A DNA stretch of 41,072 bases from a virus: IMG/VR virus record IMGVR_UViG_3300050505_000076, positions 1 to 41,072 of that record, one strand, 5' to 3'. This document shows positions 944 to 41,072 of this stretch, one piece after another. Within the stretch, counting starts at the first letter, position 1, and the number at the start of each line of letters is the position of its first letter. The notes beneath the pieces were generated by a model that did no database searches, was not told the DNA's origin, and saw only the letters and a program-made list of their open reading frames with translations. Position numbers and translations under genes: made by a program.

Positions 944-3151
944 TCACTTACCTGCGCCGTTCGGCGCCCTGTCTTTCTCTGCGGCCTTCAAGGCCTTGTC
1001 TGCGGCTTCTCTCTCGTGAGCCGCCTCTACGTGGGTGTTGAGCAATTGCCCACCGACCCGAATCTCTGCAACGTCCCGCGCGGTCGCGCCTTGGATCTCG
1101 GCGACGTCTTTCTTCGCGCGGACGTTCTTGTCGACTTCGCTCACCCAGCCGACGAAATCACGCTCACTATTGGCGTTGTCGGCACCAACCTTCAATTCGG
1201 TGTTATGCACCGAAGTGACAGCCTTCATCTGCTCGCGCTTCGTTGCACCCTCTTCCTTCATCTGCGCGATGCTCGCGCCGTACTGCAGCTCCAATCCCAT
1301 CTGCTGGATCTGCTGATCCTTCTGCTGCATCTGAGCTTGAAGCGCGCCGATAATCGTCTGCGCCTGCTTCGGCAGGTTCTCGATGATCTTGTCCACGGCG
1401 CCCGGAATGGTGACGGCAAGGCGATCGGCCACCTCATCTGCACCTGGAAAGTCCATGTTGCGCACAACGATGTCGCCGGAGGTCTTTGCGACCATCTCGC
1501 CGAGTGGCGTGCCGAGGAGCTCCACCATTGACTCCGCGGCTTCCTCGCGCTTCGTGGCATAACCGGGACCGGTGTCCATCACGACGTCGTAGCGTCCGAC
1601 AGATAGGTCGTTCTTGACGCGAACAACTGCGGGATTCTCTGGACTCGGCTCCGGCTGATTGATGCCAACCATCTGCGGGATGCCATCATCGCCGATGATT
1701 CGCTGCATACGAGCGGTGTCGTAGTAATACGGGATCTGCTCGAGCAGGATGGATCCTGTCCACGCGATGGCGAGCGTCTGATTGTCGTAGTACTGGAAGT
1801 GCGTGAGGTCCTGCATGCCCTGCCGGCGCTGCAGATACTTGTTTCCGCTCACTACGCGCGCGGAGATCTCCGGATTCTCCTGCGGCATGCCGGCGACTGA
1901 CATCAGGTCATGCTCAGCGCCCTGAGCCGCTTCGGACATGCCCGCCTCGACCTGCGCGGGCTGAACTCGCTGCGGTGGAGGGAGCGGCGTCACGCCATCA
2001 GGGCCAGCAATCGGCTTGTACACGAGCGTCGAGTACGACTTCTGATTGGCGTCGTTCCACTCCGGGTGGCCTTCGATTTGCCCTTCGGCCACGACCCATG
2101 GCGCCTTCGGTGTGAGCGCATAGCGCTCCGTCTGAGCCGTGCGCCAATAGTTGAACATCTGCGCAGGGTCTTTCAGGTCCTCGACCATTCCCTTGCGCTT
2201 CACGAGGCCATTCACGTCAAGAACGTTGCCCTCGCAGCGGATCACGGGGATGAACCGGCCGGGAATCTCCCGCTGATCCACCACATCACAGCCGTTGAGC
2301 CGGAACCACTGCACCACTCGTCGTGTGGTCGGGCGCTCCGCAACGATCGTGAGACCGATGGCCTGGATGTACTTGGGATCCTCCATCTCCGAGCGCAGCT
2401 TCACTGAGCCGTCAGAGAACCTGACGAGCCGATCCTTCACCTCATGGATGCGGTAGTACTCGGCGAGGCGCAGTTCTTCCTTGTTCTCCCAGAACGTCGT
2501 CATATCGCCGGGAGCATCTGCGTATGACCAATCAGCATTCTTCGCCTGCGGGTACCGGCGCTTATACTCCGCGCGCTTCATCGTTTCACTGATGATGCAC
2601 CACGCCTGGTCCTCGCCGGCCGGCATCACCGCGCCAGGGTCCATGTAGACCGTGAACGGGTTGCGAATCGGCTTGATCAACAGTTCCTGATCGAAGCTGC
2701 GCTCATCGATGTACTCCGAGACGATGCGCCAGTAGCCCCAACCGATATTGATCGCGCTGATCACGCCGGTGTCGTAGGCCACCGAGGCATTGCTGCGCGT
2801 CTCGATGTGGCGTATCAGGCCGTTGACCACTGATGCCGTGTCGACATCCGCGCCATCGCCCACGGCGTGACACTTGATCCGCGGACGCTGCTGGCGAAGC
2901 GTGTTCTCCAGGCGCGCGCAGAAGGTGTTCGTGTGGTTGATGGTGAGCGCGGGACGGCCATCGATCTTGCGCACGTTGCGCACGTCCGCATCCCACTGCT
3001 CGCCCCAACGGAACTTGAGTGCATCGATGCCCTTGATCCGGTTCTCAGACTCGGCCGCCATCGCCATACGCAGGCGTTCGGCGCACTCGCGCCAGATGCC
3101 TTCGTTGGTCGTGGCGTCACGATCGAAGTCTGAGGGCTGGGCGCTCACCAT
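944..3151 (-). CDS. Portal protein (P22 gp1-like, with long C-terminal helical barrel)
   Basis: 735 aa. The N-terminal block ENRIKGIDALKFRWGEQWD...RPALTINHTNTF...GWGYWRIVSEY resembles P22-type portals. The C-terminus is Gln/Glu-rich and helical. It lies downstream of terminase. A GGAGGGG Shine-Dalgarno precedes the ATG. Confidence 0.88.
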   Translation of the reverse strand: MVSAQPSDFDRDATTNEGIWRECAERLRMAMAAESENRIKGIDALKFRWGEQWDADVRNVRKIDGRPALTINHTNTFCARLENTLRQQRPRIKCHAVGDGADVDTASVVNGLIRHIETRSNASVAYDTGVISAINIGWGYWRIVSEYIDERSFDQELLIKPIRNPFTVYMDPGAVMPAGEDQAWCIISETMKRAEYKRRYPQAKNADWSYADAPGDMTTFWENKEELRLAEYYRIHEVKDRLVRFSDGSVKLRSEMEDPKYIQAIGLTIVAERPTTRRVVQWFRLNGCDVVDQREIPGRFIPVIRCEGNVLDVNGLVKRKGMVEDLKDPAQMFNYWRTAQTERYALTPKAPWVVAEGQIEGHPEWNDANQKSYSTLVYKPIAGPDGVTPLPPPQRVQPAQVEAGMSEAAQGAEHDLMSVAGMPQENPEISARVVSGNKYLQRRQGMQDLTHFQYYDNQTLAIAWTGSILLEQIPYYYDTARMQRIIGDDGIPQMVGINQPEPSPENPAVVRVKNDLSVGRYDVVMDTGPGYATKREEAAESMVELLGTPLGEMVAKTSGDIVVRNMDFPGADEVADRLAVTIPGAVDKIIENLPKQAQTIIGALQAQMQQKDQQIQQMGLELQYGASIAQMKEEGATKREQMKAVTSVHNTELKVGADNANSERDFVGWVSEVDKNVRAKKDVAEIQGATARDVAEIRVGGQLLNTHVEAAHEREAADKALKAAEKDRAPNGAGK

Positions 3152-3342: not shown

Positions 3343-3638
3343 AGCTTTGCTCGCAGCCTCACGGCCGTATCGCTCATCGCTCGCTTGATCTGCCGGGCGA
3401 TTTCATCCATCCGCGAGTGAGAGTCCATCTGTCCGACGCGCAGCGCCTGAGCCTCCTCAAGCTGCTTTACGCAGTCCTCGGCTACAGCTTTCCAGTCGTC
3501 CAGTTCCTTCGCCGCGGCCAGTAGCGCCTCACGGATCTCCTTCGCGGTGGGCTTGGGCGCATCCTGCTCAAGCGCGCGGAGCTGCTCAGACGTGATGCGG
3601 CTGTCGGTGTACTGCTTTTCGGGGAGGGCGAAGCTCAT
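3339..3638 (-). CDS. Hypothetical helical protein between terminase and portal
   Basis: ATGA overlap with the TerL stop at 3635-3638. The 99-aa product is charged and helical (MSFALPEKQYTDSRITSEQLRALEQ...). Confidence 0.6.
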   Translation of the reverse strand: MSFALPEKQYTDSRITSEQLRALEQDAPKPTAKEIREALLAAAKELDDWKAVAEDCVKQLEEAQALRVGQMDSHSRMDEIARQIKRAMSDTAVRLRAKL

Positions 3639-4981
3639 GATGCGAGCCATCCATTCCCGCGAGGGAATACGCGTGGCGGAGGCGCAGCCTTCTTCTCCTG
3701 CTTCTCCGCGGTCAGTTCAGGGAACAGGCTCGACAGGCCCCAGATCATGGCGTCGGCTCGATTCGGGCTGTTCGCGCCCGTGTAGCCGTGCGTTGTGAAC
3801 GCGCACAACTCATCCTCGAGTTGAGGGAATACACCAGCGAGACGAGCCTTGCCGGTCTCGCAGAAGGCTGATACGGGCTCTGCGCGCACAACCTTGCCGC
3901 GGCTCGCGCGCACTTCACGGAATGGCGTGCGAGGGCGCGCCGTGTGGATGACGTTGCGAACCATGGCGCCGCCGTAGTTCACTTCCGCAACGATCGCATC
4001 GGCCTGATGGCGGTCGAATGCCTGAGTGGCCACTTTCCCCCACGTGGCTGGGCCGGTCTTGCAGGTCAGGTCCTCAAGCACGTAGCCGTTGCCATCGAGG
4101 CCAAGGCCACAAACGACGATGCCGATCTCGTCGTTGTCTTGGTTGTCCTCGTCATCTGCGCCAGACGGATCGATCGCGACCACGATACGCAGCATGTCCG
4201 GGAGCGATGCATCGATCACTCGCCAGCGATCGAGGACCTCGTCGACGAACAGCGCATTGGGCGCCATCTCGCGAAACTCACCCTTGAGGAATCGCGCCTG
4301 AAGCCGAACCGGCAAGCCCGACAGCGTCTTCAGGTAATCGCCGGCAAGGTTCTCCGCGTTGTCCTGCGGATTCATCTGGATCGAGCCGTACTCCTCGCGA
4401 TTGGCCAGCGCCTGCTTCGTCTCTGGATCCTGGCCGCTCTTGAAGAGCTTGTAGGTCCAGTGACCTTTGTCTGGCGGGTTCTCGTCGTAGTACATCTTCA
4501 GCGGCAGCGGTCGCTTGTCGCGGATGTTCTCGTGCACGAGCTGCGCGAGACGCGTGACAGCCATGTTGCGGCTGGTCCACGGAATCTGAGAGCACTCATT
4601 CAGGTGGATCGTGGCGTACTCGTTGCCGAGAATCTTCTCGGTGCGTTCCTTGTCGTCGAGCCCACCGAACCAGTATTCGGAGCCATTCGGGAATGCCACG
4701 AACCAGTCCGTCTTGTTGAGCTCGTAGTCCTGGCCAGGAAAGCAGAGCTTCATCACCTTCGGGAACGTGTCGTAGATGATGCTCGACTTGATGTGGCCAA
4801 ACCGGAAGCGCAGAGACACGTGCCGGCTTCCCGGCGCTTTCAGCGCACGGACAACAATGGCGCGCACGATCAGGAAGGTTTTGCCGCTGCGTGAACCTCC
4901 GAACAGCATGAGGTGACGCGCGGGCGACGCCAGCAACCGATTGGCCTCCTCCTGCTTGCGCGTGAGCCTAAAGGTCTGCAT
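3635..4981 (-). CDS. terL: Terminase large subunit
   Basis: Starts MQTFRLTRKQEEANRLL. Walker A motif is LFGGSRSGKTF. The C-terminal nuclease-like half includes VAIDPSG...DEIGIVV. The longer track ORF (to 5275) overlaps terS out of frame, so ATG 4981 was chosen. Confidence 0.9.
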   Translation of the reverse strand: MQTFRLTRKQEEANRLLASPARHLMLFGGSRSGKTFLIVRAIVVRALKAPGSRHVSLRFRFGHIKSSIIYDTFPKVMKLCFPGQDYELNKTDWFVAFPNGSEYWFGGLDDKERTEKILGNEYATIHLNECSQIPWTSRNMAVTRLAQLVHENIRDKRPLPLKMYYDENPPDKGHWTYKLFKSGQDPETKQALANREEYGSIQMNPQDNAENLAGDYLKTLSGLPVRLQARFLKGEFREMAPNALFVDEVLDRWRVIDASLPDMLRIVVAIDPSGADDEDNQDNDEIGIVVCGLGLDGNGYVLEDLTCKTGPATWGKVATQAFDRHQADAIVAEVNYGGAMVRNVIHTARPRTPFREVRASRGKVVRAEPVSAFCETGKARLAGVFPQLEDELCAFTTHGYTGANSPNRADAMIWGLSSLFPELTAEKQEKKAAPPPRVFPRGNGWLAS

Positions 4982-5240
4982 CGGTCGATGAGATGACGAT
5001 GGGGAGCACGACCTTGCCGCTGTGCTCGACCGCGGCGAGGCGCGGGTGCAGATACGGAGCGACTGACTTCGCGGCATCCGTTCGCATCGCCATGGACTGC
5101 TCTTCATCCCGCATGACGCTGAGCAGGAACTCGACTGGGGAGACGCCTTTGTCGGCCGCCGCGGATGCGATTGCAGCTTGCTTCCGATTGCGCCCGCCTG
5201 GGCGACGTCCCGCACCTGGCCTAGCGCCACCGCGCGGCAT
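4968..5240 (-). CDS. terS: Terminase small subunit (putative)
   Basis: 90 aa with a basic N-terminus (MPRGGARPGAGRRPGGRN) followed by SPVEFLLSVMRDE, as in many small terminases. It overlaps the terL start by 14 nt. A GAGGAT Shine-Dalgarno lies upstream. Confidence 0.7.
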   Translation of the reverse strand: MPRGGARPGAGRRPGGRNRKQAAIASAAADKGVSPVEFLLSVMRDEEQSMAMRTDAAKSVAPYLHPRLAAVEHSGKVVLPIVISSTDADL

Positions 5241-5271
5241 TTGAAATCCTCTGAAAAATATTCAGGCGCAA

Positions 5272-5646
5272 TCACGCAGCCCTCAGATCATCACGCACGA
5301 TCGCCACATCCCGCTCTGAGCAGACGATGTGCTTGACCCCATTCACCATGACCTCGGGAAACTGGTAGCCCTTCCCGTCGAACTGATTCAGGCCGCCGAG
5401 CTCGACGATGTCGCCGGGCTTCACTTCGGTTGGCTGGAAGCGCTTGGAGTAGTCCATGAGACCCTTGGGGCCTTTCTCGTTGCGCTTGTACTTGATCGGA
5501 TGATGGCCGGGCCCTACTGCAACCACCTCACCGCGCACAGGCCTCCCGTGGCGGATGGCGATCACGGTCTTGTTCGCATCCCAGTCGAGCGGCTTCACCA
5601 GGATCCGATCGCCGACCATGCGAAGGATGCCGTTGACGACTTCCAT
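5272..5646 (-). CDS. GroES/Cpn10-like co-chaperonin
   Basis: MEVVNGILRMVGDRILVKP...RGEVVAVGPG...VKPGDIVEL matches the GroES signature blocks. The start was chosen at the internal ATG that abuts the upstream stop at 5646. Confidence 0.7.
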   Translation of the reverse strand: MEVVNGILRMVGDRILVKPLDWDANKTVIAIRHGRPVRGEVVAVGPGHHPIKYKRNEKGPKGLMDYSKRFQPTEVKPGDIVELGGLNQFDGKGYQFPEVMVNGVKHIVCSERDVAIVRDDLRAA

Positions 5647-16154: not shown

Positions 16155-16702
16155 GCAACCGGTCTTCTGAAACGAAAGTCCAATGCATCTATCGCTCCGG
16201 CTGCCCGCATGGGCGATGCACGACTCATTGTCTCGGCGCCGGCACATTAGAGGCAGCGTCCTCAAAGAAAGACCTCACGTTCCAAGAGGCTTACGAGCGA
16301 GCACAGAAGGCCGCCATTGCTTGGGACCCACTGACTCACAATCGGAAGGATTCTTTCCTTCGCGAGATTAGGAACGCCTACGCATACGGATATACGGCCG
16401 CCCTACTGGCTGAAGGCGCTCACGAGACGACATCGCCTCAAGCGCCCATCGCGAAGCTCTACATCAACGGCGGCGTCGCGAATGGTGTCGTGGTCTATGC
16501 GCCGGGCCTTCCCGATGGCGAGCACGAGCTGTACTGCGAGCCCGCAAGCGTCGCACCTGCTGTGAAAGCCACACCACATCGTCTCGATCAGTTCGGCGAC
16601 TGTCGCAATCCGGGATGTACCTATCCGTCGATCGGCAATTGGGACGCGAGCAAGTGCACCGCTGTGAAAACATCTTGTTCCGATGCAGGTAATAAGCCGT
16701 GA
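16151..16702 (+). CDS. Hypothetical protein (GTG start)
   Basis: GTGA overlap. 183 aa. No domain recognised. Confidence 0.5.
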   Translation: MSNRSSETKVQCIYRSGCPHGRCTTHCLGAGTLEAASSKKDLTFQEAYERAQKAAIAWDPLTHNRKDSFLREIRNAYAYGYTAALLAEGAHETTSPQAPIAKLYINGGVANGVVVYAPGLPDGEHELYCEPASVAPAVKATPHRLDQFGDCRNPGCTYPSIGNWDASKCTAVKTSCSDAGNKP

Positions 16703-16884
16703 GAAATCACTGCGCCAAGTGCGGAGATATGCGCATCAGCGTGAAGTACGACAAGGTGCTCGACATGCTCAACCTCAAGTGCGAGCGATGCGGGCACGAG
16801 TGGACCGAGTACCCGAACGACGCGTCTCAGCAAAGGCTTCAAGCCGCGATGTCGGCCAGAGCTGCAGACCCAAGGTCCGAATGA
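16699..16884 (+). CDS. Zinc-ribbon protein
   Basis: 61 aa with CAKCG...CERCG pairs. Confidence 0.55.
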   Translation: MRNHCAKCGDMRISVKYDKVLDMLNLKCERCGHEWTEYPNDASQQRLQAAMSARAADPRSE

Positions 16885-17207
16885 CGAAAATACCCGAAAC
16901 GCTTGAGGAAGCTCGAAAACTGCCTGAGGAAGGCGGTGGCGTAGCGGTGTACTTTATGTGGCGCGGCGATGAGTTGCTTTACATCGGCGGATCTCGCCAA
17001 GTCAGTCAGCGCATTGACCAACATCACCGCACGCGCCGATACGGCGAATTGCATGCCTACGCTCGGAAGTTTATTCCGTTTGATCGCGTGACGATTTTCA
17101 AGTGCGAGATGCGCGAACTCTACGATCTTGAGACCACGCTGACGAAGCGATTCCAGCCTTCGCTATGTGACCGCGAAGATGGAGGAAACAAATGGGTCTC
17201 TGGCTGA
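16881..17207 (+). CDS. GIY-YIG nuclease-domain protein (paralog A)
   Basis: VYFMWRGDELLYIGGSRQVSQRIDQH...DLETTL carries GIY/YIG, Arg and Glu positions. It is a paralog of 19056-19406. Confidence 0.65.
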   Translation: MTKIPETLEEARKLPEEGGGVAVYFMWRGDELLYIGGSRQVSQRIDQHHRTRRYGELHAYARKFIPFDRVTIFKCEMRELYDLETTLTKRFQPSLCDREDGGNKWVSG

Positions 17208-31774: not shown

Positions 31775-32202
31775 TACTGAATTCCCTGCTGTTGCTGCAG
31801 GAGTTGAGCGGCCGAACGATCGCCATGCATGGCACGCAGCGCGAGAAGTTGAGCCAGACGCTGATTCCCGCCGCCCATATTCCGCTCGGGAATCTGCATC
31901 GTGGGGCCGTTCTGCATGATCGGCTGCACGCCCCCGCCAGGGGTTGGCATCCATGCATTGCCCGGCGCTTGAGTTGGTCGATAGCTGGGATTCGGATTGA
32001 TGCCCAAGAGCGTATTCAAACGCCCCATCGCACCGTAACCAGATTGAATATAGGGCTGTTGCTGCTGATTCAGGACATTGAACATGTCCATGTTTGTCTG
32101 AGCAGCTTGTTGCGCGCCTTGCGCCTGCTTTTTGCTTCCGGCGTATGAAGCGGCGCCGGCGATCAGCGCGCTACCGCCTATAGCAACTGCGACCCATGTC
32201 AC
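31774..32202 (-). CDS. Internal virion protein (putative) with N-terminal transmembrane segment (GTG start)
   Basis: VTWVAVAIGGSALIAGAASYAG is followed by a Gln-rich region. The track ORF extension overlaps the cupin gene. Confidence 0.45.
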   Translation of the reverse strand: MTWVAVAIGGSALIAGAASYAGSKKQAQGAQQAAQTNMDMFNVLNQQQQPYIQSGYGAMGRLNTLLGINPNPSYRPTQAPGNAWMPTPGGGVQPIMQNGPTMQIPERNMGGGNQRLAQLLALRAMHGDRSAAQLLQQQQGIQ

Positions 32203-32207
32203 GAGCG

Positions 32208-32708
32208 TTACTCCGCATGAGCAGTCTCCTGCTCGATGAGCTTTAGGCATTCGCTCGCCACGAATGCATCCAGCTCGACGAAGTCCCGCGCGATGATGTC
32301 GCGCTCGATCTCTGCGAGGTCGGTCGATTCTACAAGATGGACGGTTGTCCACCACGTTTCTTCGTGGCAATACAGAGCCCGCTTACTGCCGGCCTGCGAT
32401 GTGAACACCACCGGCCGTTCGCGTGCATCGATCTCGTGCCGGCCGAATTCAGTCACGACGGTCACGAGCCCGCGCGAAACGATGTTCAAATGCGCGTGTT
32501 TGTGGATTTTCCCCACGACCAATGCACCTTTTGGCAACTGGATCGTTCGGCCGTAACTACCAGGCGCAAAGGTATGCTCAAGCGGGCAGTCAATCTGCTC
32601 AAACTCCCGCATGCGTGTTTCGAGCGTCAGAATCTGCTCACGCGAAGGCAGCAACACTTGTTCTAAAGCCTGCGTCTCTACCTTCACGATCTCCTGCGTG
32701 GCATTCAT
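32208..32708 (-). CDS. Cupin-fold-like protein
   Basis: GKIHKHAHLNIVSRG...VVFTSQAGSKRALYCHEETWWTTVH resembles cupin motifs 1 and 2. The assignment is tentative. Confidence 0.45.
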   Translation of the reverse strand: MNATQEIVKVETQALEQVLLPSREQILTLETRMREFEQIDCPLEHTFAPGSYGRTIQLPKGALVVGKIHKHAHLNIVSRGLVTVVTEFGRHEIDARERPVVFTSQAGSKRALYCHEETWWTTVHLVESTDLAEIERDIIARDFVELDAFVASECLKLIEQETAHAE

Positions 32709-33052
32709 GTCGGCACGAATGTGACGGTTGGGTCGACCGTGTAAGTGATCTTCAGAAGATCCGAGGCGTTCAGCGTGAACATGCCCGCGACCGTTCCCAC
32801 GGTGAAATACGTCGTGCCGCCATCTCGCGAGAAGGCTATTGCCGATACGGTACCACCGCTCACGATGAGCGCTCCCTTGCGGCTAGCGCTGTAGATGTAA
32901 GGCGAACCGGTCAACGTCACAGGTTCAACGTTGCCGGGAGCGAGACCCCGGAAAAGCGCGGCCCAGAAGCGATACCAATCACGGCCCGTCACCTTGCCTT
33001 CGATGAGAGGCACCGGGTAGTTTGGCAGCGAGTTGAATTGACCGGATGCCAT
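32705..33052 (-). CDS. Hypothetical virion protein (position of tail plug/needle-associated genes)
   Basis: 115 aa, beta-rich. ATGA overlap downstream and a 1-nt overlap upstream. Confidence 0.5.
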   Translation of the reverse strand: MASGQFNSLPNYPVPLIEGKVTGRDWYRFWAALFRGLAPGNVEPVTLTGSPYIYSASRKGALIVSGGTVSAIAFSRDGGTTYFTVGTVAGMFTLNASDLLKITYTVDPTVTFVPT

Positions 33053-34605
33053 CAGGCAGCTGCCTGCTGCTCGGTCTGAGCGAACAATGTCGCGCCCACA
33101 ATGTCGCGATTCGTCGGCTCGCTATAGCGTACCTCTGCCACGTAGTTGCGGGAGACGCCTAGCCGGCGCTTGATGGCGCGGTTTAGGTACTCGCCGGTTG
33201 CGCCGACAGGCACGAAGAACTCAGTTCCGAAGGTTGCGCCACCATCTCGAGAACTTCGAAGCATCAACTGCGGATTCGAGCCTTGGCCAGCCGACAGACC
33301 CATTCCGGAGGCGAAATCGATCTGCAGCGATCCCAGGAACATTCGGCGCCGATCTTCCTTGCTCCACACGTATGGCGTGCGACGTACCGCGACCAGCGGT
33401 GTATCTCCGTCCGTGTAGAACTGGCGACTCATCTGATAGCCGCTCTGCTCCTGAAAATCTCCCACCATGCGGATGTTCTGATAGTTCGCGAAGCACGAAC
33501 CCTTGAATCGATGAAAGATGCCGGTGTCAGGATTAAATGAGGCGCGCTGGTGCCATTGAGGCATTCCAGCGGCTTCACTCGCAGTCTGATCGTAGACCCA
33601 TGTCTTGTCCGCGGTCGGGAACGTGAGCACGTAGAAAAGGTGCCCTTCCTCTTCGTACACAAAGCCAATAGCGTCTGAGACGAAGGGATAGCTTGCGATG
33701 GCCGCTTCCACTGCGCGCGATGAGATATCGACGTAACTGTACTGCTCGGTCTTGATCACGACGTTCTGGCCGCGTTCGCTGTTACCGAGCCAAACCAGGG
33801 AAGAGCCCAAGCGGGCGACCGACTGCGCGGCCGAACAACCTATCTGAGGTGCGACGCCAGGAATGCGGCTGAAGGCGAAGTTCGCGCCGCCTGCGTCGTA
33901 CCAAACCTCGCTCGTGCGCTCACCGATCAACCACAACTCGCGGTTGTTCTCCATGAGCGTGACAAGGTTGTCGGAGCTCGAATCCTTGAGCGCGAAGAAT
34001 GTTGCGTCAAACTGGGTCGTGTATGGCGTGGGCGAATTCGTAAAGAACCGCTGTGTGCCGACGACGTTGAATATCAACCAACCGTCAATAAAGGCCACGC
34101 GGTCTGCTGGCTCGAAATCGGCGTCGGTGATCTGCGTGAGGGTGAACGTTGATATCTCGTAGAGATACCCATATGCGCCATCGACAATCACCGCGAAACC
34201 GCCGGGGCCATTGTCGCGAATGCATACCGGTCCCGTGTTCGTGTTCAGACTGCCGATAAACGCCTTCGAGAACTGCGCGATCGTTGTTTGAGTGGCCGCC
34301 ACGGTCATCTGAGTCAGGATCACAGCGCGACCGACTACCCAAAGTGCATCAGTACCTCCGGGAAGCACCCAGACTCCCCGACACCCTCCCGTTGGAGCAA
34401 CGAGAACATCGTCACTCATCGTACTAAAGTCGAAAATTTCGTTCAGCCCAGGACAGCCGAGCAGAGCGATGGGAGTTTTGCTCTTCGGGTCCTGCGAATA
34501 TTCAGGGTACCAATTAATGAGGCGCTGGCGATCCTGATTCGGGTTTGGCGCCTCATACGCCTGACCCACGAACCCAAAGTCCCCACCTTGATAGTTCATC
34601 CCCAT
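33052..34605 (-). CDS. Tail hub/nozzle protein (P22 gp10 'stabilisation protein' / T7 gp12-like)
   Basis: 517 aa. The C-terminal block LMLRSSRDGGATFGTEFFVPVGATGEYLNRAIKRRLGVSRNYVAEVRYSEP parallels the P22 gp10 C-terminus. It follows the adaptor gene. Confidence 0.65.
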   Translation of the reverse strand: MGMNYQGGDFGFVGQAYEAPNPNQDRQRLINWYPEYSQDPKSKTPIALLGCPGLNEIFDFSTMSDDVLVAPTGGCRGVWVLPGGTDALWVVGRAVILTQMTVAATQTTIAQFSKAFIGSLNTNTGPVCIRDNGPGGFAVIVDGAYGYLYEISTFTLTQITDADFEPADRVAFIDGWLIFNVVGTQRFFTNSPTPYTTQFDATFFALKDSSSDNLVTLMENNRELWLIGERTSEVWYDAGGANFAFSRIPGVAPQIGCSAAQSVARLGSSLVWLGNSERGQNVVIKTEQYSYVDISSRAVEAAIASYPFVSDAIGFVYEEEGHLFYVLTFPTADKTWVYDQTASEAAGMPQWHQRASFNPDTGIFHRFKGSCFANYQNIRMVGDFQEQSGYQMSRQFYTDGDTPLVAVRRTPYVWSKEDRRRMFLGSLQIDFASGMGLSAGQGSNPQLMLRSSRDGGATFGTEFFVPVGATGEYLNRAIKRRLGVSRNYVAEVRYSEPTNRDIVGATLFAQTEQQAAA

Positions 34606-35549
34606 CAGCGGAACCCGCCGTATAAGATCCATCCGGCATCAGTGCGCGGGCGCTGCATTAGCTCCGGATCATAGTTGGCGACTGGGACAGGAACCGCATT
34701 CAGTGACTTCACGTAGTCTTCGGCTTCCTTCGTCAGCTTTTCCTGCTGCTGCGTCCAAATTGATCCGTATTCTGGAGCAAGATCACGCGCCAGTTTGCGC
34801 TTCAGAAACCGAGAGTAGCCCTGCGGCAGATTCACTGCGGTCGTAAGCGCAGAGAAGTTCGTCAGAATCAGATCCGTGTACAAGTACAGTTGCGCGGCAC
34901 TGGACGGGTTCTGATAGAAGAACAGCGTGCCCAACGGCATGGTCGGGTTGTACCAGAGCACAATTGGCCAAGGAGCCTGAATGGCTTTGAAGCCGATGTC
35001 TACGTATCGCTTCTGATCCACGATCTCGATTGGGTAATCGAGCCCAGAGCCCTGCGTGTAAATGCGCGTGAACGCATTCGTGATCCGCAAGGGCCGCTCC
35101 ATCTTGAAGTCGCCAGGGATCGTGTAACTGATCTGCTGCGCACCGGGTGAGCTCGTGCCAACCGCCGACATCGTGACAGTATTAGCGCCCGCGTTGAATG
35201 AGAGGATCGTTGTGCCATCCGCTATGCCCGCGCCCGATAGATCTCCGCCTGCAACCATATCCGACGGCACGGTTGCGCTTGTGATCGTCGCAGAGCCGCT
35301 CGTTACCGTGCCTGCGAATGTGCCCGCATCGTAATTACCGATCGTGTACTGATACTGTCCTGGCGTATAGGTAAAGATGTTCTCATTGCTGGCATAGACC
35401 GCCGATTCCTGTGTGCTGAGCGATTCCAGAAGATCATTCAATGTCTCAAGGGCATCATCAGCGTCCGCCGAGGATAACGACTCGCCTGGCGCATACTGAT
35501 TGATGAACTTCAGTGCTCCAGCGATGATGTCGTTTGCGGTCGTGCTCAC
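34605..35549 (-). CDS. Head-to-tail adaptor (P22 gp4 / T7 gp11-like) with inserted domain
   Basis: The N-terminus ANDIIAGALKFINQYAPGESLSSADADDALETLNDLLESL matches the gp4/gp11 adaptor signature. The central Gly/Thr/Ser-rich insertion is about 100 aa. Confidence 0.65.
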   Translation of the reverse strand: MSTTANDIIAGALKFINQYAPGESLSSADADDALETLNDLLESLSTQESAVYASNENIFTYTPGQYQYTIGNYDAGTFAGTVTSGSATITSATVPSDMVAGGDLSGAGIADGTTILSFNAGANTVTMSAVGTSSPGAQQISYTIPGDFKMERPLRITNAFTRIYTQGSGLDYPIEIVDQKRYVDIGFKAIQAPWPIVLWYNPTMPLGTLFFYQNPSSAAQLYLYTDLILTNFSALTTAVNLPQGYSRFLKRKLARDLAPEYGSIWTQQQEKLTKEAEDYVKSLNAVPVPVANYDPELMQRPRTDAGWILYGGFR

Positions 35550-35914
35550 GGATCAACCAAGAGTGAGATCAGGCCATCTCCAGCGGCGACCACGGTGGTA
35601 TCCGTATCTGCGGCTAGCTTCGTGACCGCGATCCATAGATCGCCGTCACCTCCCGAGAACCCTTCCGTGAACGCTTGCATCACTCCGCCTGTCGTGGTCC
35701 CCAGCGCTGGGATGGCAATCGTGACTTGCGGCGCAGTCGTGCCCACAGTGGGCGCAGATGCACCATTACTTGGCCTGAACCAGTAGAGCTTTACGAAAAT
35801 CTCATACGCGGCCGTATTTACCGCGATGATGCCCTTCACCTTCGGGCTTTCCTGGCGAACCTTGTTGAGATTCGTCGTTGCGCCCGTGACGAGTCGAAAG
35901 ACGGATGCGGTCAT
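35546..35914 (-). CDS. Hypothetical virion protein
   Basis: 122 aa, beta-rich. ATGA overlap with the adaptor gene. Confidence 0.5.
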   Translation of the reverse strand: MTASVFRLVTGATTNLNKVRQESPKVKGIIAVNTAAYEIFVKLYWFRPSNGASAPTVGTTAPQVTIAIPALGTTTGGVMQAFTEGFSGGDGDLWIAVTKLAADTDTTVVAAGDGLISLLVDP

Positions 35915-35918
35915 GGCG

Positions 35919-36254
35919 TCACACGATCGCAGTCGGCAGATCGCCGGGGTTCTCGCGACGCGTCACCTTGATGAGATACACCTCGGCTGCTGTGGGCGTG
36001 GTAGCCGTCGCCGCGGTGGCGTTCACGAAGTTGATCGCGAGCGTATTGGCTGCACTGACGCGGGCACCGCAGATGCCGATGCCTGCCTGTGCGGTGGGCT
36101 TCTGCACCTCCACGAAATCGGTTGTGAGCAGACCATTGACCGTAAAAGTCTGCTCGGCCGTTGTGGCTGCCGCGACCTGCGCGGGAGAAAGGGTCGCCTG
36201 CAGCAGAAAGATGTACGACAGATTGCCGAGTGCGATGTCTGAGGAACCGGGCAT
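35919..36254 (-). CDS. Hypothetical virion protein
   Basis: 111 aa, Ala/Thr-rich. Confidence 0.5.
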   Translation of the reverse strand: MPGSSDIALGNLSYIFLLQATLSPAQVAAATTAEQTFTVNGLLTTDFVEVQKPTAQAGIGICGARVSAANTLAINFVNATAATATTPTAAEVYLIKVTRRENPGDLPTAIV

Positions 36255-36281
36255 TTCAAATGCTCCTGAAAAGGGGTGAGG

Positions 36282-36836
36282 TCACTTGGCCGTCAGGGTC
36301 GCGATGAGATCCTGACAAGCTTCCTTGTAGAACTGCGTTGAGAACGCCACTCGTTCGCCACTCTTGGTGGTCAGATCCGGATGTACCGAATAGCCCCATG
36401 TGGCTTCGAAGTCGCACGTGTACCCTTCCGGGTTCCACTGCGCGTCATTGTCGGGCGCATTCTTCGCGCGCCAGGTCTTGGAGATGTAGAAGTACAGCAT
36501 CTCTGACACCGGCGGCCACGCGTGCGTAAAGTCGCCGTATGCGCGATTGCTGCACCAGTGCGGCGTGATGATCTGCGCTTTGCCGCCTTTCACCAGCACG
36601 CGATGCATCTCGTTGAAGATGTGTACGCGTTGAATGCCGGTGAAGTGCTCGAGGATGTGCGACATGTGGATTTCTTCCACAGACCCATCCGCCCATGGCC
36701 ACGGCCCTGTGAGATCGGCGACGATGTCGACACCATCGAAGGCGCGCCGATCGACGCCGAGAAATCCGGGCTTTTTGTTCTGCCCGCATCCAAGGTCCAA
36801 CTTCAGGAGCGGAGCGGTTTCAACGACTGCATTCAC
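36282..36836 (-). CDS. Class I SAM-dependent methyltransferase (Methyltransf_11/23-like)
   Basis: LKLDLGCGQNKKPGFLGVD (motif I), ADGSVEEIHMSHILEHF and VLVKGGKAQIITP. The GTG start overlaps the dehydratase stop (GTGA). An alternative ATG lies at 36941. Confidence 0.75.
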   Translation of the reverse strand: MNAVVETAPLLKLDLGCGQNKKPGFLGVDRRAFDGVDIVADLTGPWPWADGSVEEIHMSHILEHFTGIQRVHIFNEMHRVLVKGGKAQIITPHWCSNRAYGDFTHAWPPVSEMLYFYISKTWRAKNAPDNDAQWNPEGYTCDFEATWGYSVHPDLTTKSGERVAFSTQFYKEACQDLIATLTAK

Positions 36837-37837
36837 GCGACATTCCTCGCATTGCGTTTTGGGGTGAGCCAGTGGGAGTGGTCGAGAGACCAGCGCACGA
36901 TGTCTTCGATAGACTGTTCGATGCTTTGCTGCGGTTGCCATCCCATCTGGCGGAGCTTTGCGCCATCGAGCGCGTAGCGCAGATCGTGACCGGGCCGAGA
37001 CGAGTGGAAGTCCACCATCTCATGCAGGAGCGGGCGCTTCTGGGCAGCAGCGATGAGACGCGCCAGTTCCAGGTTGTCCATCTCGCGTTCACCGACAACG
37101 TTGTACTTCTCGCCGGCCTGCCCGCGTTCGAGCAGGAATAGCACCGCATCGGCAACTTCGCGCGCATCGATGTAGAAGCGACTTCCCGCTTTCGTGCGCG
37201 TCTTGTCCGCATGGATCGTGACGAGCTCGCCATCGCGAACTTTCGCGATCGTACCCGGCACCATCTTCTCGGGATGCTGGCGATACCCGATCACGTTCAT
37301 CGTATGCGTGATGATCGCGGGCAACCCGTAGGTGTTGTGATAGCTGACGATCAACTCTTCAGCGCCCGCCTTCGTCGCGGCGTACGGATTGCCAGAGTGA
37401 TAGCGATCGTCTTCCTTGTAGGCCGTACCCTTCGGAGCCGGGCCAAAGACCTCATCGGTTGAGAAGTGCAGGAAGCAGCCGCTACCGGCCTTGCGGGCAT
37501 AGTCCGCGAGGTGGCAGGTTGCGACCACATTGTCCAGCACGAATTCCATTGGGCACTCGATGCTGCGATCAACATGCGTCGCCGCGGCGAGATGCACGAT
37601 GTAATCGAACGCGCCGAGTTGGCTTGCGAGCTGATCATTGATCGCGGCTCTCAAGTCATGGAAGACGAATTTGACGCGCGGGTTCTTCGCCGCACCGATC
37701 TCAGCCAGCCGATTCAGATTGCCGCTTGTATCGAGTCGGTCGATGAGCGTGACGTGCCAGTCTGTGCGCTCAAGCACAGCTTGCACGAAGTGATGACCGA
37801 TGAAGCCCGCGCCACCCGTAATGAGAATTCGTTTCAT
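36833..37837 (-). CDS. NAD-dependent sugar-nucleotide 4,6-dehydratase/epimerase (RfbB-like extended SDR)
   Basis: MKRILITGGAGFIGHHF, STDEVFG, YAATKAGAEEL and RPGHDLRYALDGAKLRQMGWQP match the dTDP-glucose 4,6-dehydratase layout. Confidence 0.8.
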   Translation of the reverse strand: MKRILITGGAGFIGHHFVQAVLERTDWHVTLIDRLDTSGNLNRLAEIGAAKNPRVKFVFHDLRAAINDQLASQLGAFDYIVHLAAATHVDRSIECPMEFVLDNVVATCHLADYARKAGSGCFLHFSTDEVFGPAPKGTAYKEDDRYHSGNPYAATKAGAEELIVSYHNTYGLPAIITHTMNVIGYRQHPEKMVPGTIAKVRDGELVTIHADKTRTKAGSRFYIDAREVADAVLFLLERGQAGEKYNVVGEREMDNLELARLIAAAQKRPLLHEMVDFHSSRPGHDLRYALDGAKLRQMGWQPQQSIEQSIEDIVRWSLDHSHWLTPKRNARNVA

Positions 37838-37839
37838 GT

Positions 37840-38583
37840 TCACCACATCATGTCCGCCGGGCCGAAGGCTCCGGTGTAGTCGTAATGGCCCACCTTTACC
37901 GCGCAGTCGATCGCGCAGCGGTATCCGTGCTTGCGCGCGTCCGACCAGAAGGTGAGGTCTTGGGTCCCGATGCCCTGGCCGTCGCGGCCGTTGAGGGTGC
38001 GAAACCAGGGCTTCTTCAGACGCTCATCCTTGAACATCGAGATGCGCCACAGGTTGAAGCCCATTCCGGTACCACAGCACTCGACGAGGCCGCCGTTTGG
38101 ATCGGGCATCTGCGGCCTAAAATTCAGTACGGGGTCATTCACATCACCCCAGATCTGGGCATGCCCGCCCTCACCCTTGGTGAAGTAGAGGCCGCCGATG
38201 CAGGCGAGCTCGGGGTGCGCTTCCATGCGCTCCACGAGCTTGACCACACCATCCCCTGCGGGACAGTTATCAGCTTCGATTGTCAGGATGTATTCCCACT
38301 GCGAAAGATCGGGATGCGCAAGCACCTGCTCGATTGCAGATGAATACGCATCCCCCACTTCCAGCCCCTGAGCCAGAATCCGCACCACCCCATTGTTAGG
38401 CGGGAAGGCGAGATTCCAGTGGGAGAGCGCAACTTTCGCCGGGATCAGATCCGCAGAGGGAATGATCACGACGATGCGTTGTTTCTTCCAACTGCCACCC
38501 TTCAGCAAGCGCGCACGAGTGCGTTCGAGATCCGCGTTGTGCGCGCCGCCGAAGCAGTCAGTCATCAGGAGCTGCGGTTTCAT
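37840..38583 (-). CDS. GT-A fold glycosyltransferase (GT2-like)
   Basis: RIVVIIPS (beta1), the acidic motif ILTIEADN, GTGMGFNLWR and TQDLTFWSDARKHGYRCAIDCAVKVGHY. Confidence 0.7.
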   Translation of the reverse strand: MKPQLLMTDCFGGAHNADLERTRARLLKGGSWKKQRIVVIIPSADLIPAKVALSHWNLAFPPNNGVVRILAQGLEVGDAYSSAIEQVLAHPDLSQWEYILTIEADNCPAGDGVVKLVERMEAHPELACIGGLYFTKGEGGHAQIWGDVNDPVLNFRPQMPDPNGGLVECCGTGMGFNLWRISMFKDERLKKPWFRTLNGRDGQGIGTQDLTFWSDARKHGYRCAIDCAVKVGHYDYTGAFGPADMMW

Positions 38584-38585
38584 CC

Positions 38586-39452
38586 TTAGTAGTTCCTCAA
38601 GACGAAGGCGAACTGTGCCTTACTCTGGTTAACGCCGGTCTGATTGACGTCCGTCACGGCAATCGTCGCCGGCATGGCCGTCGTTGCAGCACTGTAGATA
38701 CCCAGAACGCCGAGCAGGTTGGTGGAGGCATTGGTCGCGGCACCGAATTCCGCGTAGTTCAATGCCGATTGGTTGCTGTTCCAGCCGTACACAGAGATCG
38801 TCTGCGCGAGGTTGGATGTCGAGGTGCCGACACTCGATGAATTTGTCGAGAAAGCAAACGCCATAACGTATTCGCCTGGCGTCATGCTGACGTTCATCGG
38901 GATTGACACGGGACGCAGGCCGCTCGCGATCAGCTGCGTATTGCCTGCGCTATTGCTCGCATAGGTGTACGTCGTCTGAGTCGAGCCGGTCGACAGCGAA
39001 ACGAGGGTACCCGGCCCGCTGTTGCTGTAGATGCCACCGATAGCCGTTATCGCGATGGCACCTGTCGCCGCATCCGCCGAGGATGCCGCGGCCCATCCCA
39101 CGATCAGATCCATGCGACTCGCGGTGACAGGCCACTGCGGATCGAAGTACTGAAGGCTGAGAGAGGCTTGACCGGGCGCGCTCACAGCGGTCATTCCCAC
39201 GGGCGACACGTAGCGCCGAATCGCACCGCCGCTCTGAGGAATGCCCAACACCGCCCAGGTCAGTACGCCACTGACCGAGACGACGTGGCACATGCCCTGG
39301 TCCGAAGTCTCTGCCAGGAATCCAACTTGGAAGTTGGAGGCAGCTGGAAGGGTAGCGAAGGTGTACAGCGTCGAGGTTCCAGACTCGACGAAGTTCGCCA
39401 TGATCGAGTTGGGGGTCGTTTGGGAGGCCGGCCCCGGATTGCTTGCAGTCAT
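38586..39452 (-). CDS. Ser/Thr/Ala/Gly-rich hypothetical virion protein (possible head decoration or fibre protein)
   Basis: 288 aa. A strong AAGGAG Shine-Dalgarno lies 7 nt upstream. It is immediately downstream of the coat gene. Runs include STGSTQTTYTYASNSAGNTQ and FSTNSSSVGTSTSNLAQT. Confidence 0.55.
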   Translation of the reverse strand: MTASNPGPASQTTPNSIMANFVESGTSTLYTFATLPAASNFQVGFLAETSDQGMCHVVSVSGVLTWAVLGIPQSGGAIRRYVSPVGMTAVSAPGQASLSLQYFDPQWPVTASRMDLIVGWAAASSADAATGAIAITAIGGIYSNSGPGTLVSLSTGSTQTTYTYASNSAGNTQLIASGLRPVSIPMNVSMTPGEYVMAFAFSTNSSSVGTSTSNLAQTISVYGWNSNQSALNYAEFGAATNASTNLLGVLGIYSAATTAMPATIAVTDVNQTGVNQSKAQFAFVLRNY

Positions 39453-39470
39453 GTTCGTTGCTCCTTGGGG

Positions 39471-40823
39471 TTAGCCCGCGATGCGCACAGCAAGCGGCCG
39501 GTAGAGGCCCGCGTAGCCGTACAGCACGTCCGCACGAGTCGGCATGGCATCGTTGTTGATGGTGTACTGCGTGACCATGCGCATACTCATCCCGATCTCG
39601 GGATCGTTTGCGCGCGCAGCCTCTTCCACGCCCCGAGGCAGTGGCAAATCAGCGAACGCGAGAGCGAAGGCCGACTTGTGCAGGACAATGCCTTGCGGGC
39701 TGACGAGGCTCGCGTAGCTCGTTCCACCATTCACAGTGAGCGCTGCTGTGGTCGTGAAGGCGCTCGTGGTCACGACGTTCTGGAACTGACCGCCGGTGAT
39801 CACGACCTCGCCGATGAGCAGTGACAGATCACCGCTTCCACTCGACGTGTATAGCCCGGTCGATGCGGCGAACGTGCCGTACGTCAGTGTCGCCGCCGCG
39901 AACGCAAGGCCCGGCGTTGCCGATCCCGTCGGGTTCTGCGTGTAGCCACCCGGAGGCAGCACAACGAATTGCTTCGTGGTGTTGCCGTACTGAGTACGGC
40001 TCTGCGGATTCGCCGGATAACAGCCCGCGATCTGGATGATGTCGCCGACCTTGATGACCGCAGTCGATGCAGTCCATCCGGTCGTCTGAAGGAATCCAGA
40101 CTGTGCCCAACCGGTCGAAATAACCGCAGGCTGCGTGACTGCCTTCAGCGTCGGAGTGCCGCCCTGCGCGCCCGTCGTGAAGCTCACGACGTTCTGGTCT
40201 TCGTACCAGTCGAGGCCCGCGAATTTCTTGGCGATCATGCCGTTCTTCACGTACTCGCCAAGCTGCGCTTGGGGATTGAAGAGGCCTTTCACGCCATCCG
40301 TCGCCGCAGCCATCGAGAGCGGATCGAGCAGCACGCACTTGTCACCATCCGGGCAGGCCTCGTTCGCCAGCCGCGCGCGCGCCTGCGCAAACGTCAGATA
40401 GCTCGACGGGCTCACACCCGGCGTGCCGATGCTGTTCGCCGTGTTCTGATAGGCGAAGTAGAGGCCGTCCGAATCGACGCGGTTTGCGACCGTCGCCATC
40501 ATCGGCTTCAGCACGCGCGTCTTGAACAGGTCCATCGACAGCAGAAGGTCCGCCGTCGTGAACTGCACGTCAACGTGGAACTGATAGTTCAGCGTGACGG
40601 GAACGTACGTTTCGTTCGTGTCTTCGACATTCAGCGCAGGGCCGAACGTGCCGAGGTAACGCGGCGGGCGCCGCACGTTGCAGGTAGCGCCGATCTTCGC
40701 ACCCTTGATGGCGAATTCGTCAGAGTACTGACGGTCCACCTTGTCGGCGAAGATCAACGTGTTCTCGAGGACGATCAACCCCTCGTTCGTGATGTAACTG
40801 ATCGTGAGCAGATTGTTGCTCAA
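39471..40823 (-). CDS. Major capsid (coat) protein, P22 coat-like
   Basis: 450 aa, downstream of the scaffold gene. Its size and end-to-end pattern resemble P22 gp5-type coats. It has a TTG start with a GGAGAA Shine-Dalgarno 6 nt upstream. Confidence 0.8.
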   Translation of the reverse strand: MSNNLLTISYITNEGLIVLENTLIFADKVDRQYSDEFAIKGAKIGATCNVRRPPRYLGTFGPALNVEDTNETYVPVTLNYQFHVDVQFTTADLLLSMDLFKTRVLKPMMATVANRVDSDGLYFAYQNTANSIGTPGVSPSSYLTFAQARARLANEACPDGDKCVLLDPLSMAAATDGVKGLFNPQAQLGEYVKNGMIAKKFAGLDWYEDQNVVSFTTGAQGGTPTLKAVTQPAVISTGWAQSGFLQTTGWTASTAVIKVGDIIQIAGCYPANPQSRTQYGNTTKQFVVLPPGGYTQNPTGSATPGLAFAAATLTYGTFAASTGLYTSSGSGDLSLLIGEVVITGGQFQNVVTTSAFTTTAALTVNGGTSYASLVSPQGIVLHKSAFALAFADLPLPRGVEEAARANDPEIGMSMRMVTQYTINNDAMPTRADVLYGYAGLYRPLAVRIAG

Positions 40824-40854
40824 AGGACTTCTCCGGAAAGAGGTTCATAACCCC

Positions 40855-41072
40855 TCACCGTCCTGCACGGCGCGCGGCTTCTCGTTGCCGCTCGTATTCG
40901 CGCAGTTCCCGAAAGTTCATCTTCGCCGGATCCTGCTGGACAGGCGTCGTTTTACCTTCGATGGGAGTGATCGGTGCGGGCGCCCTCGAAACGGAGGGAG
41001 TTGCAGCCACTGCAGGTGTTGCAGGTTCGGGCTGCTTCTCGAACTTCGCTTCGAGTTTGCCGAGTTCCGCGA
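40855..41072 (-). CDS. Scaffolding protein, C-terminal part (continuation of 941..1 across the junction; 40946-41072 duplicates 1-127)
   Basis: The frame is continuous across the junction: ...PIEGKTTPVQQDPAKMNFRELREYERQREAARRAGR, with the stop at 40855-40857. The total is 343 aa. Confidence 0.75.
   Translation of the reverse strand, partial: AELGKLEAKFEKQPEPATPAVAATPSVSRAPAPITPIEGKTTPVQQDPAKMNFRELREYERQREAARRAGR
40946..41072. repeat. Terminal overlap, copy 2 (identical to 1-127)
   Basis: Exact 127-nt identity with the window start. It lies inside the scaffold gene reading frame. Confidence 0.97.

Follow-up and report, generated by a model that had tools for sequence, protein, structure and literature searches.

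Why would a phage place sugar-modifying enzymes directly behind the gene of its major coat protein, and what do these enzymes act upon? This question is raised by the IMG/VR virus record IMGVR_UViG_3300050505_000076, analysed here over its 41,072 nucleotides (hereafter the window), which encodes on its minus strand, between positions 36,282 and 39,452, a Ser/Thr-rich protein of 288 residues (p288) followed by a glycosyltransferase (GT), a nucleoside diphosphate (NDP)-glucose 4,6-dehydratase (DH) and a methyltransferase (MT). An initial annotation of the window had read these four genes as a candidate virion glycosylation system embedded in the capsid operon. Comparison with other viral contigs points to a core of three genes in fixed order, a fibre protein with the p288 knob at its C-terminus being followed by the GT and then by the MT; the explanation favoured here, held with moderate confidence, is a module devoted to attaching and O-methylating sugars on a fibre or decoration protein of the virion.

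An ordered fibre-GT-MT trio in uncultured phages

A pattern-seeded scan of IMG/VR for the GT returned 116 matches, from which 80 loci (designated L) were kept, and the locus counts given below come from pattern-seeded scans of this kind, capped at 80 loci. An MT gene lies just downstream of the GT gene in 79 of the 80 loci, the sole exception ending at a contig edge. On the upstream side, a first-pass hidden Markov model (HMM) of p288 saw the knob in only 38 of 74 loci; once iterated on the open reading frames (ORFs) of the loci themselves, the model finds in 64/74 loci a same-strand protein that terminates in the p288 domain and is encoded one to five genes upstream of the GT, the knob-ending protein being immediately upstream in 43 of the 74, and a six-frame search that recovered the knob of L003 brings the count to 65/74. 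In seven of the nine loci without a knob, the contig holds at most one gene upstream of the GT. The reverse search, which starts from conserved p288 peptides, yields 36 loci, 26 of them with both GT and MT, and those lacking the pair are mostly contig ends or second fragments of genomes that carry it elsewhere. In all, the ordered trio of knob, GT and MT is found in more than 100 unrelated viral contigs of uncultured phages, which strongly and independently supports the link between p288 and the enzymes drawn by the initial annotation. Because the linkage holds from both the GT and the p288 searches, the core module appears to be fibre-GT-MT in that order, with DH an accessory.

The dehydratase, which had been counted as part of the set, turns out to be optional: about 11 of the 80 loci have it, placed between GT and MT, at 60-75% identity. 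The same slot, or one next to it, is taken in other loci by an RmlD-like short-chain dehydrogenase, an apiosidase-like glycoside hydrolase or homing-endonuclease genes of the HNH and GIY-YIG types. HNH genes lie between GT and MT in L003 and L071 (representative scanned, L034:1222-1704) and GIY-YIG genes in L030:8733-9431 and L069, and homing elements seem to use the strongly conserved GT-MT pair as a landing site. The apiosidase-like glycoside hydrolase of L045:4821-6218, which has a homologue in L011, is encoded between the long fibre gene and the GT and carries a C-terminal "collagen-binding" domain; it may be a virion-associated depolymerase. In L051:8753-10459 the MT ORF reaches 568 residues, the two halves of the MT (residues 22-142 and 492-564) being split by an insertion of about 350 residues, perhaps an intein or some other mobile insert. 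A search for fibre-GT or fibre-MT fusion proteins, of the kind used as Rosetta-stone evidence, found none.

The position of the trio relative to the structural genes varies. It follows the coat gene in the window, precedes it in L088, L093, L097 and L100, and lies between the portal and the major head protein in two unrelated coat lineages, L074 (phrog_334) and L029/L056 (phrog_9953); in L060 and L064 it stands ahead of a collagen-like tail fibre and adaptor, and L020-type loci have a second knob gene after the MT. Counting the window's own coat family (phrog_283), at least three coat lineages carry the trio among their head genes, and the trio is absent from Xanthomonas phage PBR31. The idea that the layout is hard-wired to a P22-like head is not upheld. 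As judged by gene comparison, the trio behaves as a mobile three-gene unit landing in morphogenesis operons, mostly in the head region.

Three soluble enzymes

The GT (37840..38583, minus strand) belongs to an uncharacterised, virus-restricted family of GT-A fold, an assignment made by AlphaFold2 (AF2) modelling and Foldseek. The model (predicted template modelling score, pTM, 0.77) displays a clear GT-A fold, that is, a single Rossmann-like α/β/α nucleotide-sugar-binding fold, and retrieves 189 matches from the Protein Data Bank (PDB) at E<=1e-3, the top 45 of which are all GT-A enzymes. The best structural match is A197 of Sulfolobus turreted icosahedral virus (STIV; PDB 2c0n; E 1e-9, TM scores 0.55/0.69, sequence identity 15%); it is followed by LH3, SpsA, mimivirus R699, ColGalT1 and polypeptide GalNAc-transferases, several of those ranking behind A197 being protein-glycosylating GT-A enzymes. 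An invariant motif, E103-x-D105-N106, occupies the DxD position, where a profile search of PDB sequences, which gave marginal matches only, aligns EHDN with the TDDN of SpsA; T207-Q-D-L and G232-H233-x-D235 are invariant as well.

The DH (36833..37837, minus strand) is NAD-dependent and, judging by its sequence, a divergent RmlB-type NDP-glucose 4,6-dehydratase acting on a deoxythymidine diphosphate (dTDP) or uridine diphosphate (UDP) substrate. It matches GDP_Man_Dehyd/Epimerase at 1e-50 and TIGR01181 at 3e-79, the latter with 266.4 bits, short of the equivalog cutoff of 365.1, and aligns over its full length with the RmlB/DesIV dTDP-glucose 4,6-dehydratases of the PDB (2hun/1r66) at 1e-54. 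The motifs of an RmlB enzyme of the extended short-chain dehydrogenase/reductase class are all present: GGAGFIG (GxxGxxG), STDE (the T-D-E triad) and YAATK (YxxxK).

The MT (36282..36836, minus strand) is a minimal class I S-adenosylmethionine (SAM)-dependent methyltransferase of 184 residues. It matches Methyltransf_11 with 22.7 bits, above the cutoff of 21.2, and phrog_6636 at 3e-13; it has the features of the class, with LDLGCG as motif I and invariant G18 and acidic D29, and its best PDB profile match is a weak one to a generic methyltransferase (3dli, 2e-5). The GT and MT families both retain their catalytic and cofactor motifs. No membrane segment was found in GT, DH or MT (maximum 19-residue hydropathy below 1.6), and PADLOC returned no defence-system match for the cassette. 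The identities given to the enzymes in the initial annotation, a GT-A glycosyltransferase, an RfbB-like dehydratase and a class I SAM methyltransferase, stand, the first by AF2 and Foldseek and the other two by family matches and motifs.

p288 and a family of repeat fibres

The candidate acceptor or partner of these enzymes is p288 (38586..39452, minus strand). Its residues 1-33 are predicted to be disordered, residues ~34-85 form one degenerate repeat of ~45 residues, and residues ~86-288 constitute a C-terminal β-sandwich knob. Ser and Thr together account for 24.7% of the protein, the highest share among 15 window proteins compared, and charged residues for 5.2%. No family match was found in Pfam, PHROG, NCBIfam or a profile search of PDB sequences. 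The AF2 model (pLDDT, the predicted local distance difference test score, 76.7) shows an all-β sandwich behind a disordered N-terminus, for which the best PDB match found by Foldseek is chain 9jwb_Z, the gp25 protein of the cyanophage A4 capsid (E 9e-5, identity 16%, TM scores 0.36/0.49). Other matches are to tips of phage fibres, lambda gpJ and Douge gp20 among them, central-fibre tips included, to carbohydrate-binding modules of family 6 (CBM6), and in BFVD to the knobs of phage proteins annotated as "collagen triple helix repeat", "parallel beta-helix" or "minor tail" (best 1e-11). The modelled knob thus resembles a surface-type protein, like the A4 cement protein gp25 and phage fibre tips. 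The capsid-cement and tail-fibre-tip matches are comparable in strength; p288 might sit on the head or on the tail, and in the mechanism proposed below the capsid would be the most likely site, with the disordered N-terminus as a putative anchor.

Related proteins range from 240 to 2627 residues and share one architecture, in which Ser/Thr/Asn/Gly-rich repeats of ~45 residues precede one C-terminal β-sandwich knob of ~200 residues; the long members have up to ~20 copies of the repeat before the single knob. The repeat consensus reads ...SAGTTS...FSNSNGvSFGlSgg.iTAS..., with several columns that are 92-94% Ser/Thr. With its one degenerate repeat and its knob, p288 would represent the minimal, shortest type of this fibre family. 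The earlier suggestion of a decoration protein is qualified by this place at the short end of a fibre family and by the fibre-tip matches, which stand beside the match to the cement protein gp25. Pfam and PHROGs gave no usable domain for nine long members, and the FSNSNGvSFG...ITAS repeat appears to be an undescribed phage fibre repeat. The giant repeat fibres of L064:106-7989, L060:790-7989 and L014:3533-7945, 1470-2627 residues in length, have no Pfam or PHROG family.

A tight, virus-restricted GT family

The GT family comprises more than 5,800 clusters at 90% identity, but at 50% identity no more than 475 representatives can be detected in 1.84 billion proteins; the small number of representatives at 50% identity indicates that the family is tight and isolated. 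Among the 120 GT homologues listed, none has a precomputed Pfam match. Identity to the window GT stays at 62-82% while the GC content of the loci runs from 32 to 67%, and conservation over such a range would be easier to reconcile with a conserved substrate carried by the phage than with host glycans, which vary. The peptide scan that gave 116 matches in IMG/VR found only 4 in 185,579 species genomes, all of them on contigs of metagenome-assembled genomes (MAGs). In GenBank phage records the GT occurs only in one uncultured Manatee Spring podovirus, deposited three times. The 8-kb region has no megablast match in 50,697 phage records, and a literature search found no description of a fibre+GT+MT module in phages. 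This only GenBank carrier, locus L001 (MW202524.1 3147-11978), has three additional GTs and an extra MT-domain gene around a p288-family gene of 598 codons, and ~6 kb of this 42.6-kb genome is devoted to sugar chemistry.

The cassette within the late operon

The window is a complete genome of an uncultured phage, 40,944 bp in size, as shown by an exact 128-bp overlap of its ends: positions 40945..41072 are identical to bases 1-128, and the exact match of the first 100 bases starts at 40945. The overlap marks the genome as circular or terminally redundant, and the junction probably falls within the scaffold gene. The same ~41-kb genome was assembled independently in the metagenomes JGI 3300007076 and ENA ERZ27257952, and public gene calls in both assemblies give identical products of 450/288/247/334/184 residues across the region, confirming the four minus-strand ORFs and their coordinates.

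The late operon runs along the minus strand from terminase (5275..3635) and portal (3151..944) across the junction to coat, p288, GT, DH and MT, and continues with p111, p122, p314, p526, a short tail-fibre/adaptor protein, ejection proteins and tail proteins. The P22-type major coat protein (39471..40823, minus strand; Pfam P22_CoatProtein 2e-25, phrog_283 1e-62), encoded directly upstream of the cassette, is 55% identical to the major capsid protein of PBR31. Its TAA stop (39473-39471) is followed by an AAGGAG Shine-Dalgarno sequence (39461..39466, minus strand) 8 nt before the ATG of p288 at 39452. A gap of 2 nt separates the p288 stop from the GT start (ATG at 38583), and another the GT stop from the DH start (ATG at 37837; if DH began instead at the GTG at 37846, it would overlap the GT stop), while the GTG start of MT at 36836 overlaps the DH stop as GTGA. 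Mechanical ORF calling extends the MT to 219 residues (36282-36941, minus strand), with an ATG at 36941 that reaches 105 nt into DH; the GTG at 36836, which gives 184 residues, is the start in the public gene calls and agrees with the homologue alignment.

This packing, which can be read directly in the DNA and is as first annotated, sets the phage-encoded GT and MT among the late structural genes, the cassette genes being separated by 2-nt gaps or overlapping, and a scan of the minus strand from 32000 to 41072 found no promoter-like or terminator-like sites. In GC content at third codon positions (GC3), the cassette genes (0.73-0.75) differ little from coat and portal (0.78-0.80). Expression together with the late structural genes, rather than as an independent moron, remains the probable arrangement on the strength of the same-strand packing.

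Downstream of the MT, the small structural-module ORF p111 (35919..36254, minus strand) is 44% identical to an ORF product of PBR31 and marks the edge of the insertion. Because the p111 homologue of PBR31 sits just downstream of the coat gene, p288, GT, DH and MT form a clean insertion relative to this phage, the closest cultured relative by coat protein. The relatives point to hosts that are Xanthomonas-like or other Pseudomonadota. Further along lie p314 (34605..35549, minus strand; phrog_12985 6e-36), a head-tail adaptor or "tail tubular A" homologue 48% identical to tail tubular protein A of PBR31, and p526 (33052..34632, minus strand; phrog_578 6e-90), a nozzle or head-closure homologue 52% identical to tail tubular protein B. 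The cassette had been placed between the coat gene and the head-tail adaptor gene; it does follow the coat gene, and p111 and p122 lie between the MT and p314.

A module proposed to modify a virion surface protein

The sequence data establish what the four genes encode, the folds and catalytic motifs of their products, the layout of the operon and the conserved fibre-GT-MT linkage. Enzymatic modification of the fibre is the best explanation because the linkage to two catalytically intact, soluble enzymes is strict, ordered and bidirectional, and because nucleotide-sugar enzymes have been recruited repeatedly to a set that is placed in a late structural operon. The Ser/Thr content of p288 and the Ser/Thr columns of the repeat would suit the role of partner or acceptor, and the extra sugar genes near the fibre gene in some relatives (the GTs and MT of MW202524, the RmlD-like dehydrogenase elsewhere) count in the same direction.

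In the proposed mechanism, the cassette would be transcribed together with the late structural genes, and p288 would be produced alongside two dedicated cytoplasmic enzymes. The GT-A enzyme would move a sugar from a nucleotide-sugar to hydroxyls of the fibre or knob, and possibly of other virion proteins too, and the SAM methyltransferase would next O-methylate the transferred sugar. Where DH is present, it would turn host dTDP- or UDP-glucose into NDP-4-keto-6-deoxyglucose and thereby raise the supply of a 6-deoxyhexose donor, rhamnose for example, with host RmlC and RmlD finishing the pathway. As a last step, the modified protein would join the particle, where its disordered N-terminus would most probably anchor it to the capsid. 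We infer the acceptor and its modified residues, the sugar, that methylation falls on this sugar and not on the protein, and where on the virion p288 sits.

Several points weigh against this proposal. Gene linkage denotes a functional relationship and does not make the fibre the acceptor; the CBM-like knob of the model could bind a glycan instead of carrying one, and conserved Ser/Thr residues in β-rich repeats can be purely structural. The sequence evidence for the GT is sub-threshold, with 16.5 bits against Pfam Glycos_transf_2 (GT2) for a cutoff of 23.3, and its DxD position reads E-x-D, the first acidic residue being Glu and not Asp. A 4,6-dehydratase alone yields only a keto-sugar intermediate. 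Two p288 loci, L090 and L096, have neither GT nor MT in the DNA examined and are possible true exceptions. No cultured phage among the records scanned has the GT, and when the 50,697 phage records were searched by tblastn with p288 or with an 876-residue family member, nothing matched, which leaves no cultured example. Virion glycosylation by the trio is a suggestion drawn from gene comparison, and the reading of the initial annotation holds as that of a candidate system.

The main rival outside the virion, judged unlikely, is that GT, MT and DH alter a host envelope glycan such as lipopolysaccharide, exopolysaccharide or capsule, for instance blocking the adsorption of progeny or competing phages, with p288 as a lectin-like receptor-binding fibre. 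O-antigen pathways typically include RmlB, O-methyltransferases and small, soluble GT-A enzymes, and in seroconverting phages such as P22 glycan-modifying genes adjoin tailspike genes; the resemblance of the knob to CBM6 modules and receptor-binding fibre tips and the apiosidase-like hydrolase between fibre and GT in L011 and L045 would agree with such a role. The GT, however, is 62-82% identical across loci whose GC contents imply hosts with necessarily very different envelopes, it is nearly absent from species genomes in comparison with IMG/VR, no integrase was found among the ORFs scanned, there is neither a flippase nor a membrane segment, and the genes, for which no separate promoter was found, are packed among the late structural genes. 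Remaining on the virion, GT and MT might instead act on the coat or another structural protein, p288 being an unmodified decoration protein or fibre that shares the module. The place of the cassette in the head module right behind the coat gene, or elsewhere between portal and major head protein, speaks for this, as do the glycans reported for actinobacteriophages, which are located on capsid and tail-tube subunits (PMC12619734, citing Freeman 2023); it becomes distinctly improbable, however, given that the coat families of trio carriers differ (the three PHROGs named above), that only the p288 knob and repeat are common to them, and that the GT is too conserved to be tracking unrelated coats.

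Genes directly behind fibre genes often encode chaperones, and GT and MT could accordingly be assembly factors, comparable to tail-fibre chaperones, that fold or mature the fibre without sugar transfer, or else makers of a small methylated glycoside unrelated to the virion. Neither enzyme's substrate can be read from sequence, which leaves room for both versions; the retention of invariant catalytic-type residues in both families over wide divergence and the repeated recruitment of nucleotide-sugar enzymes to the same spot nevertheless make them very unlikely. The last alternative, hypermodification of phage DNA, with a modified base as the acceptor of the GT and DNA as the substrate of the MT, is hardly credible here. 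Phage GT-A enzymes that glycosylate 5-hydroxymethylcytosine are abundant in IMG/VR, sometimes beside sugar epimerases (bioRxiv 10.1101/2023.12.21.572611), but the motifs ExDN, TQDL and GHxD of the window GT differ from the R...DDD...EDY/F set described in the same work, the MT matches Methyltransf_11 and has no (D/N/S)PP(Y/F) motif, and the module is tied to a fibre gene in the head region and not to replication genes. The partner genes looked for among the window ORFs scanned (thymidylate-synthase-like, TET/5mYOX and C5-cytosine methyltransferase) were not detected, and DNA hypermodification, which the initial annotation had named as a possible refutation, was set aside for want of these partners and of the GT-A motif set.

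To return to modification of the fibre, a broader claim is advanced tentatively, namely that the trio is a widespread, unrecognised phage system for glycosylating the phage's own proteins, in which a virus-restricted GT-A enzyme and an O-methyltransferase decorate Ser/Thr-rich repeat fibres. If so, many uncultured phages of very different hosts would wear a coat of methylated glycans, which would affect their adsorption and stability as well as grazing and immune recognition, and the thousands of GT homologues, spread over 32-67% GC, would make glycan-coated particles common among environmental phages. Such a module would, moreover, establish a new GT-A family whose protein acceptor is fixed genetically.

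Comparison with known systems

Virus-encoded virion glycosylation is known from chloroviruses, mimiviruses and a few actinobacteriophages, and most phage surfaces are assumed to be bare protein. The present module, if correctly read, would be a new version of it, combining a new enzyme family with a dedicated fibre target, and the first such system outside actinobacteriophages and giant viruses. It is also small, with three or four genes, soluble enzymes and a candidate substrate of 288 residues.

The nearest parallel in phages is found in actinobacteriophages, for which PMC13313380, citing Freeman 2023, reads a GT together with a methyltransferase as a signature of virion glycosylation. In mycobacteriophages Che8, Corndog and Myrna, the work of Freeman et al. 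2023, as cited in PMC12619734, PMC13445384 and PMC13313380, is reported to place glycans on virion proteins. The two systems have in common a phage-encoded GT, or several, often with a methyltransferase. In the actinobacteriophages the glycans are on virion structural proteins and the function belongs to the lytic cycle, as is proposed for the window module; and where their reported acceptors are the C-termini of capsid and tail-tube subunits, the conserved partner in the trio is a separate repeat-and-knob fibre. The host range also differs, the window being a podovirus-type genome with a P22-like coat, related to a Xanthomonas phage.

Chloroviruses offer a parallel in enzyme logic. A064R of PBCV-1 (Paramecium bursaria chlorella virus 1) combines a GT-A rhamnosyltransferase, a second GT and a class I SAM methyltransferase, A061L is a methyltransferase, and Z544R of ATCV-1 (Acanthocystis turfacea chlorella virus 1) is a UDP-glucose 4,6-dehydratase (PMC9614988). 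Chloroviruses and the window share a 4,6-dehydratase for 6-deoxyhexose supply, a cytoplasmic GT-A enzyme and a capping O-methyltransferase, all virus-encoded, and the chlorovirus target is a virion surface protein, as is proposed for the window module. In contrast, chloroviruses are eukaryotic giant viruses whose N-linked glycans are carried by the major capsid protein and whose enzymes are fused in one multidomain protein, and the likeness is one of enzyme logic. A197 of STIV, an archaeal virus, is like the window GT a small, soluble, virus-encoded GT-A enzyme; unlike it, A197 has no associated methyltransferase or fibre gene.

For p288 itself, the closest comparison is with gp25 of cyanophage A4, a podovirus, in which this auxiliary cement protein consists of a CBM-like β-sandwich with an N-terminal anchor on the capsid surface (PDB 9jwb; PMC12002296). 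The modelled β-sandwich and the candidate N-terminal anchor of p288 (residues 1-33, predicted disordered) would follow the same plan, whereas gp25 has no repeats and no reported glycosylation genes.

Seroconversion cassettes (gtrABC, oac) are likewise phage-borne sets of sugar-modifying genes that can sit close to receptor-binding genes. They encode membrane proteins, a bactoprenol GT together with a flippase, sit near int/att and are expressed in the prophage state, whereas the window has soluble enzymes in a late operon and no integrase was found among the ORFs scanned; the flippase, bactoprenol GT, prophage context and integrase linkage of a gtrABC-type set were not found for the window cassette. 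Prophage seroconversion was therefore set aside on account of soluble enzymes, the integrase not found, near-absence from bacterial genomes and late-operon location. The possibility kept in reserve by the initial annotation, that the genes act only from a prophage to change host O-antigen or capsule, is not borne out by the integrase result, by the 4 matches in 185,579 genomes and by enzymes free of membrane segments.

Other features of the window

Two ORFs outside the cassette deserve mention. At the end of the tail module, a 684-aa ORF (24881-26935, minus strand) coincides with a dip in GC content to 0.51-0.53, against ~0.59, and has a GC3 of 0.58; it has no Pfam match and a weak one (1.8e-5) to a PHROG family of unknown function, and looks like a recently exchanged receptor-binding fibre or spike. 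In the early region, a 174-aa ORF (16683-17207, plus strand) shows a weak GIY-YIG nuclease match (E 6e-4, under the Pfam cutoff) and may be a homing endonuclease.

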